In this document: positions 14,593 through 20,105 of the stretch, piece after piece | Layout: every line of letters starts with the position of its first letter | Numbering within the stretch: position 1 is the stretch's first letter | From: Squalus acanthias | Taxonomy: Eukaryota | DNA: 64,000 bases | Assembly (NCBI GenBank): GCA_030390025.1 | Contig: CM059432.1 | Location: 22,880,001-22,944,000, forward strand | Direction: 5' to 3' | The notes under the pieces: generated by a model | The model's input: only the letters and a program-made list of their open reading frames with translations | Databases searched by the model: none | Told to the model about the DNA's origin: nothing | Program-made: the position numbers and the translations under genes

Positions 14593-14926
14593 AGGTCCAT
14601 TTGGGTGGTTCACACTATGTTGGTAGGGACAAGTAGGATTTTGCTTTGAAACACACTGCTATCCAAGCTAAGTCACCTCAACTGGCAGAGAAGGGAAAAC
14701 TCGAATGCAGAGGCAAGGTCCATCCTCCAAAAGGAAGAAAAGTCAGATCGGAAATTATCCTCTAGTGATCAGGTAGAGTTATATTGGAAAACTCTTGGAG
14801 AAAGTTGTTTGTCTTTCATCTTGGTTAAGGATTGGTGGTGTAATCCAGGAAAGAATCTAAAAAAGAGGGGGAAGAATTATTAGAAAATATAAATGTATCA
14901 CCCCAACATATTATGGTAGTTAAACT

Positions 14927-15549
14927 CTTTTTTGCAGAGGCCAGTGTCGGGAGCGGAGAGAGCAGCAGCACAGTGAGTATTTAAACTCACTTTTCGCGGG
15001 CTTTTTTTGCAGAGGCCAGTGTCGGGAGCGGAGAGAGCAGCAGCACAGTGAGTATTTAAACTCACTTTCGCGGGCTTTTTTTGCAGAGGCCAGTGTCGGG
15101 AGCGGAGAGAGCAGCAGCACAGTGAGTATTTAAACTCACTTTCGCGGGCTTTTTTTTGCAGAGGCCAGTGTCGGGAGCGGAGAGAGCAGCAGCACAGTGA
15201 GTATTTAAACTCACTTTCGCGGGCTTTTTTTGCAGAGGCCAGTGTCGGGAGCGGAGAGAGCAGCAGCACAGTGAGTATTTAAACTCACTTTCGCGGGCTT
15301 TTTTTGCAGAGGCCAGTGTCGGGAGCGGAGAGAGCAGCAGCACAGTGAGTATTTAAACTCACTTTCGCGGGCTTTTTTTTGCAGAGGCCAGTGTCGGGAG
15401 CGGAGAGAGCAGCAGCACAGTGAGTATTTAAACTCACTTTCGCGGGCTTTTTTTTGCAGAGGCCAGTGTCGGGAGCGGAGAGAGCAGCAGCACAGTGAGT
15501 ATTTAAACTCACTTTCGCGGGCTTTTTTTGCAGAGGCCAGTGTCGGGAG
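14927..15549 (+). repeat. About 8.4 tandem 74-75 bp monomers at the 5' end of CR1 family A
   Basis: Unit T(6-8)GCAGAGGCCAGTGTCGGGAGCGGAGAGAGCAGCAGCACAGTGAGTATTTAAACTCACTTTCGCGGGC; copies differ only in T-run length. Confidence 0.97.
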
Positions 15550-16002
15550 AGACGAGACCGGAAGCGGACCAGGTGGGAAGCACCCAGGTGAACAGCATTT
15601 AAGGAGGGTGGTGGCTTAAACCCGAGTTCCTACAGAGTAGGAACCCCCACCCGCCCTCCTCCTCTAACCTACTAGTCTTTTAGCAGTCTAAAAACAGAGG
15701 TCACAAATTTTTTGGTCTCAGTTTCTTTTCAGCAGGGCAGGAACCGGGAGGAGCGGGAAGTCGGCGTAGGACCAAGGGGACACAAGACCGGGAAGTCAGC
15801 GAAAGACCAGGGAGGTAAGACTAACTGGTAAGTACTTTCCTCAAACCTTCCTAGAAAGTAAAACTAAAACTAGTGGGATTTGGTTAGTTTAAAAAGGAAT
15901 AAGAGGAGTACAGTATACATTGGTCTAAGTAAGCTTCGGGAAAACAAAAGTCAATAAATAAACTAAAACTAGAAAATTAAAAAGTAATATAAGGGTTAAG
16001 TC

Positions 16003-16950
16003 ATGGCAGTAGAGCTCGGACCTGTGTCATGCTCCTCCTGTAACATGTGGGAAATCAGGGACGCTTCCTGTGTCCCTGACAACCATGTGTGCGGGAAGTG
16101 TGTCCAGCTGCAGCTCATGTGGGACCGCATGACGGCCCTTGAGCTGCGGATGGACTCACTTTGGAGCATCCACGATTCTGAGAGGGTTGTGGATAACACA
16201 TTTAGTGAGTTGGTCACACCGCAGGTTAAGGCCAGCGTAGATAGTACATGGGTGACCAAAAGGCAGAGCAAGGGCAGGAAGGTAGTGCAGAAATCCCCTG
16301 GGGTTGTCTCCCTTAGCAACAGGTTCACCGCCTTAGGTGCTGTTGTCGGGGGGGATGACTCATCGGGGGAAGGCACCAGCAGCCAGGCTCATGGCACCAT
16401 GACTGGCTCTGTTGCAAAGAAGGGAGGGAAAAAGAGTGGCAGGGCTATAGTAATAGGGGATTCGATTGTAAGGGGAATAGATAGGGGTTTCTGTGGTCGC
16501 GACCGAGACTCCAGGATGGTATGTTGCCTCCCTGGTGCAAGGGTCAAGGATGTCTCGGCGCGGGTGCAGAACATTCTGGAGGGGGAGGGGGAACAGCCAG
16601 TTGTCGTGATACATGTTGGTACCAACGACGTAGCTAAAAAAAGGGAAGAGGTCCTACAAGTAGAATTTAGTGAGTTAGGAGCCAAGCTAAAAAGTAGGAC
16701 CTCGAAGGTAGTAATCTCTGGATTACTACCAGTGCCACGTGCTAGTAAGAGTACAGAGAACAGGATAGTTAGGCTAAATACGTGGCTTGAGCAGTGGTGT
16801 AAGAGGGAGGGTTTTAAATTTTTGAGGCATTGGAACCAGTTTTGTGGTAGGTGTGACCTATACAAAAGGGACGGTCTACACCTGTGCAAAGATGGAACTG
16901 ATGTTCTCGGGGTAATTTTTGATAAAGCAGTTCGGGAGCATTTAAACTAG
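16003..16950 (+). CDS. CR1 ORF1p (zinc finger, coiled coil, SGNH-esterase-like domain), 315 aa, intact
   Basis: CSSC…CGKC, IVIGDSIVRG, CCLPGA, HVGTND, DGLHL motifs. Confidence 0.93.
   Translation: MAVELGPVSCSSCNMWEIRDASCVPDNHVCGKCVQLQLMWDRMTALELRMDSLWSIHDSERVVDNTFSELVTPQVKASVDSTWVTKRQSKGRKVVQKSPGVVSLSNRFTALGAVVGGDDSSGEGTSSQAHGTMTGSVAKKGGKKSGRAIVIGDSIVRGIDRGFCGRDRDSRMVCCLPGARVKDVSARVQNILEGEGEQPVVVIHVGTNDVAKKREEVLQVEFSELGAKLKSRTSKVVISGLLPVPRASKSTENRIVRLNTWLEQWCKREGFKFLRHWNQFCGRCDLYKRDGLHLCKDGTDVLGVIFDKAVREHLN
16941..16950 (+). promoter_or_regulatory. Candidate -1 ribosomal frameshift site T_TTA_AAC followed by TAG
   Basis: X_XXY_YYZ heptamer in ORF1 phase; ORF2 lies in the -1 frame; same motif at 10407-10398 (-) and 39891-39900 (+). 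Confidence 0.7.
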
Positions 16951-19892
16951 TATGGCAGGGGGCTAGAAACCTATGTAGTGAAATAGAGGAAAGTGAAAGG
17001 CAGACAGAAATAAATGGTAAAAGGGTGAGGAACAAAAAACAAAGGGCCAAACCAATTCATAAAAAATGTGAGCATAAAAAAAGCCTGAGGGTTTTATACC
17101 TTAATGCGAGAAGCATCAGGAACAAGGTAGATGAATTAGCTGTGGAAATAGAGGTTAATAATTATGATCTAATTGGGATTACGGAAACATGGTTGCAGGG
17201 TGAGCAGGGCTGGGAGCTTAACATACAGGGGTATTCAGTATTTAGGAAGGATCGACAAAAAAGAAAGGGAGGAGGGGTAGTATTGCTGGTAAAAGAAGGG
17301 ATAAATGCAATTGAAAGGAAGGATATTAACTCAGTTAATACAGAATCTATATGGGTGGAGCTAAGAAATAGCGAGGGGCGAAAAACATTAATAGGAGTGG
17401 TATATAGGCCTCCAAATAGTAAAATAGAGGTTGGGGAGGGCATCACGAGGGAAATTAGAGAAGCGTGCAATAAGAGCACAGCTGTCATCATAGGTGACTT
17501 TAACTTACATATAGATTGGAATAGCCTAATCAGTAAAAATAATGAGGAGGAGGAATTCCTTGAGTGTTTAAGGGATGGTTATCTGGATCAATATGTCGAG
17601 GAACCAACTCGGGAACAGGCTATATTGGACTGGGTACTGTGCAATGAGAAGGGACTAATTAGTAATCTTGTTGTACGGGGACCCTTGGGTCAGAGCGATC
17701 ATAACATGATCGATTTCTCACTCGAAATAGAGAGCGAAGAAATTGACTCAGATACTAAGGTCCTGAATTTAAACAAGGGGAATTATGATGCCATTAGACG
17801 GGAACTGAGTAGGTATGATTGGACAACGTTCCTGGGAGGACTGGAGGTAGATAAACAATGGCAAGCATTTAAAGATAGAATGACAAAATTGCAAAAATTG
17901 TTTATACCAATCTGGCATAAAAGGAAATCTAAAAAGGTGACTCAACCGTGGATAACAGGGGAAATTAGAGACAGCATAAAATCCAAAGATAGGGCGTATA
18001 AAATAGCCAAAAAAAGCGCCAGAGCGGAAGATTGGGAACAGTTTAAGATAGAGCAAAGGAGGACAAAGGGCTTAATCAAGAGGGGCAAAATAGCTTACGA
18101 AAGCAAGCTGGCGGAAAATATAAAAACTAACTCCAAAAGCTTTTATAAGTATATCAAGAGGAAAAGACTGGTGAAAACCAAAGTTGGCCCATTGCAGTCA
18201 GATACGGGGGAATATATAACGGGAAATAAAGAAATGGCAGACCAACTAAATGCATACTTTGGGTCAGTCTTTACGAAGGAAGACACAAAAAACCTCCCTG
18301 GGATATCGGGAAAAATAGGGACATTTGCAAAGGAGGAACTGACGCAAGTCAATATCTCTAAGGATATGGTGTTAAGGAAGCTAAAGGGATTGAAGGCGGA
18401 CAAATCCCCAGGGCCTGATAACATGCATCCTAGGGTGCTGAAGGAGGTGGCCCTAGAGATAGCGGATGCACTAAGTATGATTTTTCAGAATTCATTAGAC
18501 TCGGGAACAGTGCCCATGGATTGGAGGGTAGCTAACGTTACCCCACTATTCAAAAAGGGGGGTAGGGAAAAAGCAGGTAATTACAGACCTGTAAGCCTTA
18601 CATCAGTTGTGGGCAAAATGCTGGAGTCCATCATTAAGGATGAAATAGCGGAGCACTTAGCAAATGGGGACAGGATAGGACAGAGTCAACATGGATTTAC
18701 AAAGGGTAAATCGTGCTTGACTAATCTATTGGAATTTTTTGAGGGAGTAACTGGTAAAATAGATGGGGGAGAGCCAGTAGATGTGGTGTACCTGGACTTC
18801 CAAAAGGCCTTCGATAAGGTCCCACATAAATGATTAGCAGGGAAAATTGAAGCTCATGGGATAAAGGGGAAAGTATTGACGTGGACAGAGAACTGGCTGT
18901 CAGATAGAAAACAGAGAGTTGGAATAAACGGCTCATTTTCTGAATGGCAGGCAGTAACAAGTGGGGTACCACAGGGATCTGTCCTGGGTCCCCAGCTGTT
19001 CACAATTTACATTAATGACCTGGATCAGGGAGTCGGATGCAGCATTTCCAAATTTGCAGACGACACTAAACTAGGAGGGGGGGTGGGCTCAGAGGAGGAG
19101 ACCAGGAAGCTCCAGAGCGATTTGGACAGACTGGGTGATTGGGCGGATAAATGGCAGATGCACTATAATGTGGACAAGTGCGAAGTTATCCACCTTGGGT
19201 GCAGGAACGGGAGGGCAAATTATTATTTAAATGGCAATAAATTGGGAGAGGGGGAAGTACAGAGAGACCTGGGTGTTCTTGTACACCAGTCACTGAAGGC
19301 GAGCATGCAGGTGCAACAGGCGATCAAGAAGGCAAACGGTATGCTGGCCTTCATAGCAAAAGGGTTGGAATACAGGAACAGGGATACCTTGCTGCAGCTG
19401 TACAGGGCACTGGTGAGACCACACCTCGAGTACTGTGTACAGTTTTGGTCGCCTCATCTGAGGAAAGATGTTCTTGCCATAGAGGGGGTGCAGCGGCGAT
19501 TCACCAGGCTGATACCAGGAATGGCGGGATTGACCTATGAGGAGAGACTATGTAGTTTAGGGATGTACACACTGGAGTTTAGAAGATTGAGAGGGGACCT
19601 CATAGAAGTGTATAAAATTCTGACAGGTCTAGACAGACTAGATGCAGAAGGAATGTTTCCCTTGGCGGGTGAGAACAGAACTAGAGGACATAATTTAAGG
19701 ATAAGGGCTAAACCATTTAGGACAGAAATGAGGGGGAATTTCTTCACTCAGAGGGTGGTGAACCTGTGGAACTCATTGCCACAGAGGGCAGTGTACGCCA
19801 GCTCATTAAATATATTTAAGAGGGAATTAGATATATTTCTACAGGCAAAAGGGGTTAAGGGTTACGGAGAGAAGGCGGGGACGGGATACTGA
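16947..19892 (+). pseudogene. CR1 ORF2p (APE endonuclease + reverse transcriptase) with one in-frame TGA at 18831-18833
   Basis: [59 protein letters not shown]. Frame open from 16926; ORFs 17025-18833 and 18876-19892 share a frame. Confidence 0.93.
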
Positions 19893-20105
19893 ATTGGAGG
19901 ATCAGCCATGATCTCATTAAATGGCGGAGCAGGCTCGAAGGGCCGGATGGCCTACTCCTGCTCCTATCTTCTATGTATGTAACCCTTTTCACAGGGAGTG
20001 CAGGTCATAGGATCAGGTTAGTGGTGTATTCCTATTTCTGATCCACACTTCCTTGAGCACAGCTTCTGAGCTGAGGGTGTGGACTTTACCCTTATGGGTG
20101 AAGTG

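Follow-up and report, generated by a model that had tools for sequence, protein, structure and literature searches.

The window analysed here, a 64,000-nt stretch of the Squalus acanthias genome (GenBank assembly GCA_030390025.1, contig CM059432.1, positions 22,880,001 to 22,944,000 of the forward strand), carries a full-length and very young copy of a CR1-like long interspersed nuclear element (LINE). Its first open reading frame (ORF1) encodes a 315-residue protein (ORF1p) with an esterase domain, and its second (ORF2) encodes an apurinic-type endonuclease (EN) and a reverse transcriptase (RT) in the -1 frame relative to ORF1. Here we report a comparative analysis of the junction between these two reading frames in the window copy, in its relatives from the same genome, and in ORF1p sequences of other organisms. 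ORF1 ends in the heptamer T_TTA_AAC, directly followed by the stop codon. The conservation of this arrangement suggests, with a probability that we put at roughly 70%, that the family makes ORF1p and a rare ORF1-ORF2 fusion protein by programmed -1 ribosomal frameshifting at U_UUA_AAC.

Architecture of the ORF1-ORF2 junction

The features of the element are listed in Table 1. ORF1 closes with ...GAG CAT TTA AAC TAG TATGGCAGGGGGCTAG..., and since its codons start at positions that leave a remainder of 1 on division by 3, T_TTA_AAC stands in the X_XXY_YYZ phase. This was the central observation of an earlier, sequence-only reading of the window, and re-reading of the letters confirmed it, together with three further statements: that the -1 frame is closed upstream by TAA, that it stays open into the EN-RT region with no ATG before 17706, and that the start given for it at 17025 in the ORF track is a GTG. 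The two reading frames overlap at 16926-16950. From 16926 onward the -1 frame is open through the endonuclease and RT save for the stop at 18831-18833, and its first ATG, at 17706, corresponds to residue 260 and follows most of the endonuclease domain.

Table 1. Features of the LINE copy and of its ORF1-ORF2 junction, in window positions
Feature	Position	Strand	Remarks
Full-length LINE copy	15465..19982	+	Very young, CR1-like; 5' limit from copies, 3' limit from tail
ORF1	16003..16950	+	315 aa; GDSL/SGNH esterase domain; C-terminus HLN, then TAG
TAA closing the -1 (ORF2) frame upstream	16923..16925	+	
Slippery heptamer T_TTA_AAC (candidate)	16941..16947	+	In ORF1 phase
Linker in the -1 frame	16941..17099	+	FKLVWQGAR...; from predicted slip site to endonuclease domain
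ORF1 stop TAG	16948..16950	+	Directly adjoins the heptamer
G-run GGGGG	16958..16962	+	11 nt past the heptamer; possible stimulator; encodes glycine as read in -1
Apurinic-type endonuclease domain of ORF2	17100..17705	+	Pfam PF03372, PF14529
Reverse transcriptase domain of ORF2	18561..19194	+	PF00078 on both halves
In-frame stop within ORF2	18831..18833	+	Private to the window copy
ORF2 stop TGA	19890..19892	+	

In-phase heptamers of the XXXYYYZ type occur three times in the ORF1 of the window (315 codons) and five times in ORF2 (about 980 codons). When the codons of ORF1 were shuffled 20000 times, 337 shuffles (1.7%) placed such a heptamer within the last eight codons and 59 placed one directly against the stop. 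As in-phase heptamers are not rare, this outcome makes any single copy, taken alone, weak evidence. The position of the heptamer in the window copy is only mildly unusual, and what exceeds chance is its conservation across families.

Conservation of the heptamer among subfamilies of the genome

ORF1p relatives from public collections were used as queries on the 3.7-Gb assembly from which the window derives, where they gave 61,000-92,000 first-look candidates. Nine representatives were compared, from subfamilies A (that of the window), E, B, D1, D2 and C1-C4. Across five of these subfamilies, identity is 40-77% in ORF1p and 0.37-0.75 at fourfold degenerate sites. All nine representatives have xTTAAAC with an abutting TAA or TAG and the endonuclease in the -1 frame. 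The same heptamer and stop were found at 47 of the 49 loci with an ORF1 end detected by the junction script, the two exceptions being a decayed copy with an earlier stop and a copy with TTTAAAA. The script requires 150 open codons before the esterase motif and passed over 17 of 66 loci, namely eight 5'-truncated copies and nine decayed copies with stops. Twenty further small loci read TTTAAAC (18 loci), TTTAAAT (one) and TTTGAAC (one).

In a nucleotide alignment of the five families, TTAAACTA forms a block of eight invariant columns, flanked on one side by a moderately conserved ORF1 tail and on the other by a nearly unalignable linker; identity in 15-nt windows is 0.80 at the heptamer and 0.07-0.5 from +25 to +190. 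The leucine of the predicted slip site is encoded by TTA in all five families, whereas the other 16 of the 17 invariant leucine columns vary in codon, and TTA accounts for 10 of the 125 other leucine codons. The codon before TTA is CAT, GAT, GGT, GGT and GCC in the five representatives (His, Asp, Gly, Gly and Ala), and so ends in T in four of them, as it does in the other seven family-C loci (GCT). The window ORF1 has two further in-phase heptamers, which serve as a control; they are kept in only one and three of the five families, respectively. The heptamer is conserved at its synonymous sites, beyond what the encoded amino acids would need. The earlier proposal to look for synonymous conservation of TTTAAAC at such junctions was borne out among the subfamilies of this genome.

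A stop-free linker and the search for an ORF2 start codon

Between the heptamer and the first endonuclease motif lies a linker of 37-71 codons that differs greatly between families, with pairwise identities of 0.07-0.5. Its -1 frame holds no stop in any of the nine representatives, against 2-13 stops in the other frames and 2.6-5.9 per frame predicted from base composition; for the linker of the window the counts are none in the -1 frame and five and nine in the two others. A linker that is both stop-free and hypervariable implies that translation of the -1 frame begins at or before the ORF1 stop, and not near the endonuclease.

No ATG is present in the -1 frame of the linker in five of the nine representatives (A, which is the window copy, B, D1, D2 and C1), and the ATGs of the other four lie at non-conserved positions. 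A family-wide in-frame AUG upstream of the endonuclease, which the sequence-only reading had named as a finding that would speak against it, did not emerge as a conserved codon among the nine. Nor does the window hold, before 17706, a restart AUG in the ORF2 frame that overlaps or lies near the ORF1 stop. There is an ATG two bases past that stop in the +1 frame (16952-16966), which opens a frame of only 4-9 codons; such a post-stop +1-frame ATG is limited to families A and E (for family E, loci L056-L066).

Sequence downstream of the heptamer

Folding of the region downstream of the heptamer, proposed earlier as a check, predicted no hairpin. The 103 nt downstream in the window gave a z-score of +0.50, with 139 of 200 shuffled sequences folding equally well; 100-nt segments gave scores of -0.49 to +1.21 in eight of the nine representatives and -2.0 in one; and RNAalifold on the nine sequences returned 0 consensus pairs. 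A G-quadruplex was predicted in four of the nine, the family of the window not being among them. These tests covered hairpins and G-quadruplexes and did not extend to pseudoknots.

All nine representatives share two features: the stop directly against the heptamer, and a stretch of 4-8 G whose first base lies 8-11 nt beyond it. As the run encodes glycines of the linker (QG.G, GG), a role in the RNA and a role in the protein are inseparable. Since the stop and the G-run are the only common elements and no fold accompanies them, the signal would be a non-standard one and its slip rate may be low. Both stimulators suggested by the sequence-only reading need to be restated: of the G-rich downstream sequence only the G-run is conserved, in all nine representatives, and it doubles as coding sequence for glycine, while the supposed A-site stop codon would, in tandem slippage, be the codon after the A site.

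RNA reads across the junction

Two raw RNA runs covered the junction at summed depths of about 85 and 117. Neither contained an inserted or deleted letter at a frequency of at least 3% at the junction, and neither contained an ORF1-to-ORF2 joint of the kind that splicing would leave. Since the reads map to both strands, they attest the sequence in RNA preparations but do not establish a sense transcript. Slippage during transcription, editing of the heptamer and splicing to an ORF2 mRNA were considered as candidates, and neither run gave a sign of them; a spliced ORF2 product had been listed beforehand among the findings that would count against frameshifting.

ORF1 proteins of other organisms

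An alignment of 27 ORF1p sequences, with a mean column identity of 49%, shows no variation at the last two residues, L314 and N315. In an exhaustive profile search, 58 of the 150 best cluster representatives end in LN, and many of the others are fragments. The ORF1p of several sharks and rays ends in LN, as does that of the reptiles Zootoca, Erythrolamprus, Macrochelys/Chelydra, Varanus and Alligator, which comprise lizards, a snake, turtles and an alligator. Various residues stand before LN (A, Y, S, T, G, F, N, C, H or V). Lys, Gln, Glu, Met and Trp, whose codons cannot end in U, precede LN in one of the 58 against a background of 20% (binomial 3.8e-5, uncorrected for relatedness).

Ten representatives, all from ENA/Logan contigs, end in GN, nine of them after Gln (the ten are P0164, P0170, P0171, P0177, P0182, P0187, P0191, P0219, P0228 and P0259), and three end in KN, with SKN in P0194 and P0255, likewise from ENA/Logan contigs. 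As protein sequences, the (Q)GN and (S)KN ends would be compatible with the heptamers G_GGA_AAC and A_AAA_AAC abutting the stop. Such a switch between types of slippery heptamer, if true at the DNA level, would be strong evidence for a role in slippage. A search of the shark assembly with P0177 gave only LN-type families at about 40% identity, and no family of the QGN type. In two gene models of the stingray Hypanus sabinus (P0260 and P0035), an ORF1 tail runs through GFKL and a linker into the endonuclease, and the two-ORF relatives of these models end in GLN; FKL in the -1 frame combined with LN-stop in the relatives fixes the underlying DNA as TTTAAACT. Searches of metagenome, genome and viral contigs with the ORF1p alignment, P0012 and P0009 as queries returned no match to the DNA of relatives from other organisms.

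Several database records derived from LINE ORF1 (P0009, P0024, P0260, P0057/P0058 and P0277) are named as host or bacterial proteins, under such titles as 'SGNH/GDSL hydrolase [Pseudomonas aeruginosa]', '40S ribosomal protein S24 isoform X2', 'hydroxyacid oxidase 2 isoform X1', 'transmembrane protein 204 isoform' and 'prefoldin subunit 5'. They likely represent contamination or gene models that have swallowed a LINE.

Proposed frameshifting and its alternatives

We propose that most ribosomes translating ORF1 would end at the TAG and release ORF1p, while a minority would slip by -1 on U_UUA_AAC, which forms the last two codons of ORF1, probably by the tandem mode in which two tRNAs re-pair. 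The slipped ribosomes would read CUA GUA UGG... through the glycine-rich, fast-evolving linker into ORF2, and the product would be an ORF1-ORF2 fusion of about 1,300 amino acids, comparable to a retroviral gag-pol protein. The abutting stop or the G-run 8-11 nt downstream might aid the slip. Work on L1 indicates that LINEs need very little ORF2 protein (ORF2p) relative to ORF1p, and infrequent slippage without the aid of a strong RNA fold would be in keeping with this.

The fusion by -1 slippage had been put forward for the window copy itself, and here the claim has to be narrowed even as it gains comparative support. The stop at 18831-18833, on which the sequence-only reading is silent, is the sole defect of the ORF2 of this copy. 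At 18831 nearly all RNA reads and contigs from four public runs disagree with the window, which marks the stop as private to this copy and absent from the expressed population, so that a product of about 1,300 amino acids is possible for the family and not for the window copy. The family has just been amplified, as described below, and ORF2p must therefore be makeable from exactly the layout found in the window.

Several observations weigh against frameshifting. In-phase heptamers are not rare, with about one per 100-200 codons in this LINE; the subfamilies are related, so that their agreement is not fully independent; and for other species the evidence is confined to protein sequences. The folding tests described above gave neither a conserved nor a stable RNA structure downstream of the heptamer. 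Ordinary tandem slippage, moreover, needs no strict abutment of the stop, and a process linked to termination is possible.

The main rival is such a process, namely AUG-independent termination-reinitiation, in which ribosomes would terminate at the TAG, remain on the RNA and begin anew in the -1 frame on some non-AUG codon close by, yielding a free ORF2p. We consider it unlikely. In its favour, the stop abuts the conserved motif in every family, no structure lies downstream, and the open linker is equally compatible with a restart beside the stop and with a slip. LINEs also offer precedents in the coupled translation of SART1 (PMC3894237) and the AUG-independent initiation of L1 ORF2 (PMC5009743). 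Reinitiation leaves unexplained, however, why the motif is a phase-correct X_XXY_YYZ heptamer, why a T stands before TTA whatever the amino acid, and why the (Q)GN and (S)KN ends of other ORF1p clades correspond to other slippery types of the XXA_AAC form. In addition, five of the nine families are without a -1-frame ATG near the stop.

ORF2p might instead begin within the linker or in the front part of the endonuclease domain, on a non-AUG codon or with the help of an internal ribosome entry site (IRES), and the heptamer would then be a by-product of a conserved LN C-terminus. The GTG at 17025 and the linker ATGs in four of the nine families could serve such a start, and a review favours IRES-like entry in many non-LTR (long terminal repeat) elements (PMC3894237). 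This explanation is improbable, as the -1 linker is stop-free from the heptamer on in all nine families where 2.6-5.9 stops would be expected, and a constraint on the protein sequence LN would allow six leucine codons, of which only TTA is seen. The positions of the linker ATGs, furthermore, are not conserved.

The two reading frames could also be joined at the level of nucleic acid, if a minority of DNA copies or transcripts with a one-base change in homopolymer length, due to slippage of a polymerase or of reverse transcriptase, supplied the ORF2 activity. Subfamily D has the material for this, with a hypervariable poly-G run (7 to 13 or more G) immediately before the heptamer. A count over the first 100 of 172 pattern matches gave 68 with the length that keeps two ORFs, 18 with one additional base and one with four additional bases, so that 19, about a fifth, fuse ORF1 and ORF2 in frame; one extra G is much commoner than one fewer (18 vs 4). 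Single fused ORFs reach 1290 and 1192 amino acids in L067 (G000:C10:954000-959100) and L068, and the two stingray gene models are fused likewise. The fused copies of subfamily D show that the linker is readable. They are a minority, however, and their homopolymer lengths may reflect mutations after insertion or assembly errors. The family of the window has no homopolymer at the junction, the RNA reads show no insertion or deletion above the threshold given earlier, and the heptamer is kept in families without a poly-G run, all of which makes this route very improbable. That the heptamer is a mere coincidence of an ordinary overlap, with no role, is barely credible: although codon shuffling puts a heptamer in the last eight codons 337 times in 20000 and such motifs recur every 100-200 codons, this one holds in every subfamily sampled and across classes of vertebrates, and its synonymous signal is unique to the codon at the slip site.

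Frameshifting at U_UUA_AAC may extend beyond the shark family. Tentatively, and at less than even odds, the CR1-type LINEs of jawed vertebrates (sharks, rays, squamates, turtles and crocodilians), together with the QGN and SKN sister clades, may all produce the fusion through one structure-independent signal that consists of an XXA_AAC heptamer, an abutting stop and a G-run about 10 nt downstream, with the stop, rather than an RNA fold, setting the slip.

Comparison with known systems

The proposed strategy is close to gag-pol frameshifting in retroviruses and LTR elements. There, too, the upstream gene finishes in an in-phase X_XXY_YYZ heptamer, the polymerase is encoded in the -1 frame and has no start of its own, and an abundant upstream protein is accompanied by a rare fusion, as would be expected for the LINE. 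UUUAAAC is also the coronavirus frameshift site, and U_UUA_AAC sites are found in both coronaviruses and arteriviruses. Unlike the gag-pol and coronavirus systems, the shark element is a non-LTR element with no detected pseudoknot or hairpin and with a stop that abuts the heptamer in every relative. Its fusion, moreover, would join an esterase-type ORF1p, and not a capsid protein, to EN-RT, and no protease that could separate the fused proteins was found in the Pfam scan. A zero-frame stop directly after the heptamer is also seen at luteovirus- and dianthovirus-type sites, which have strong local or long-range RNA structures; in the LINE, unlike at those sites, no structure was detectable. Among animal LTR elements, gag-pol -1 frameshifting has been described (PMC5009743).

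For non-LTR elements a precedent comes from the Dictyostelium elements TRE5-A and TRE3-A, whose ORF2 requires a -1 frameshift according to a figure legend in a review (PMC5911963). In the light of that legend, the statement of the sequence-only reading that studied LINEs avoid gag-pol-style frameshifting was too strong. These are APE-type LINEs for which, as is proposed for the shark element, ORF2 is said to need a -1 frameshift; they differ in being amoebozoan, in targeting tRNA genes and in belonging to another clade, and the comparison is with that legend. Against these, the shark element stands out by its signal, a canonical heptamer that is conserved across a clade of vertebrate LINEs. 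By analogy, it would be a further member of the gag-pol-type frameshift family, membership of which has already been claimed for the Dictyostelium LINEs. Drosophila HeT-A supplies another non-LTR gene, gag, that needs a frameshift for its expression (PMC5009743), although there the shift lies within gag of an element without RT, and in the shark LINE at the ORF1/ORF2 junction.

Human and mouse L1 and Bombyx SART1 resemble the shark LINE in having bicistronic RNAs and a rare ORF2 product whose synthesis hinges on what happens at the ORF1 stop. In L1 a spacer separates the two frames and ORF2 initiation is AUG-independent, by an unknown mechanism (PMC5009743), and SART1 has an overlapping UAAUG with downstream structure (PMC3894237). 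The shark LINE, in contrast to both, has no AUG, a -1 overlap and a slippery heptamer. The initiation of ORF2 in LINEs is treated as an open question in the 2013 review PMC3894237, in the available text of which the word 'frameshift' is absent, and the available part of the recoding review PMC5009743 mentions, for non-LTR elements, only HeT-A and initiation of unknown mechanism. We found no report of CR1 frameshifting in the literature searched, and older CR1 structure papers outside that search might mention the overlap; for LINEs in general the search yielded only the TRE5-A legend and the HeT-A remark, and the accessible portions of PMC2734521, PMC11835228, PMC4255032, PMC1965478, PMC5006619, PMC7175516 and PMC11203168 contain nothing on the subject.

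If confirmed, frameshifting would be a new finding for CR1, and an unusual one in that no RNA structure takes part, and it would place a gag-pol-like strategy in a major clade of vertebrate LINEs. Birds, reptiles and cartilaginous fishes have CR1 as their dominant LINE. Delivery of ORF2p fused to ORF1p would provide a simple physical basis for cis-preference and for the ratio of ORF1p to ORF2p, and it would become possible to correct the annotation of CR1 ORF2, which at present lacks a start or is mis-modelled into host genes. A signal made of heptamer and stop, without RNA structure, would also make a useful minimal model of frameshifting.

Classification, copies and surroundings of the element

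The LINE likely belongs to the CR1 clade, judging from its domain composition. ORF2 carries an apurinic-type endonuclease followed by RT, ORF1 carries an esterase (SGNH/GDSL) domain, and homologues of ORF1p are present in reptiles that have CR1 as their main LINEs. An ORF1 with an esterase domain is said to have been recognized as a CR1-like trait by Kapitonov and Jurka in 2003. Alternatively, the element may belong to the L2 clade. The esterase domain occupies residues 150-298 of ORF1p (PF13472, E 1.4e-10 in Pfam), and a scan of ORF1p against NCBIfam found no matching family.

Recent amplification is evident from the number and similarity of the copies. At least 40 genomic places are 100% identical to positions 16700-17200, according to a search with this 501-nt stretch in which 40 of 256 candidates were scored. 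Among 29 other copies that were fetched, 26 show 5-13 mismatches to the window within 2.0-3.2 kb, one has 51 mismatches and two are out of register. The match begins at 15465 in five of 30 fetched copies, and the other copies are 5'-truncated. At the 3' end the LINE has a short tail of the TTCTATG type without poly(A), which reads ...TTCTATGTATGTAA at about 19968-19982. The 3' ends of CR1 elements lack poly(A) and close with short direct repeats of an octamer motif, to which this tail may correspond. Reads continue past this tail into TTCTTATG/TTCTATG repeats. Over the final ~100 nt (19876-20000, comprising the 3' untranslated region and the tail) read depth rises 10- to 40-fold in all four runs, which fits very many 5'-truncated copies or repeats derived from the tail.

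The 501-nt stretch 16700-17200 also recurs in public sequencing runs under at least six organism labels, which contain 83-91% of its sampled words, so that the family is near-identical across several labelled species or samples; one further organism (runs X9 and X10) contains about a quarter of the words. Just upstream of the 5' end of the LINE, at 14898-15343, open reading frames on the minus strand encode repeated peptide blocks (KKARESEFKYSLCCCSLRSRHWPLQ...), which indicate a tandem repeat of roughly 80-160 nt.

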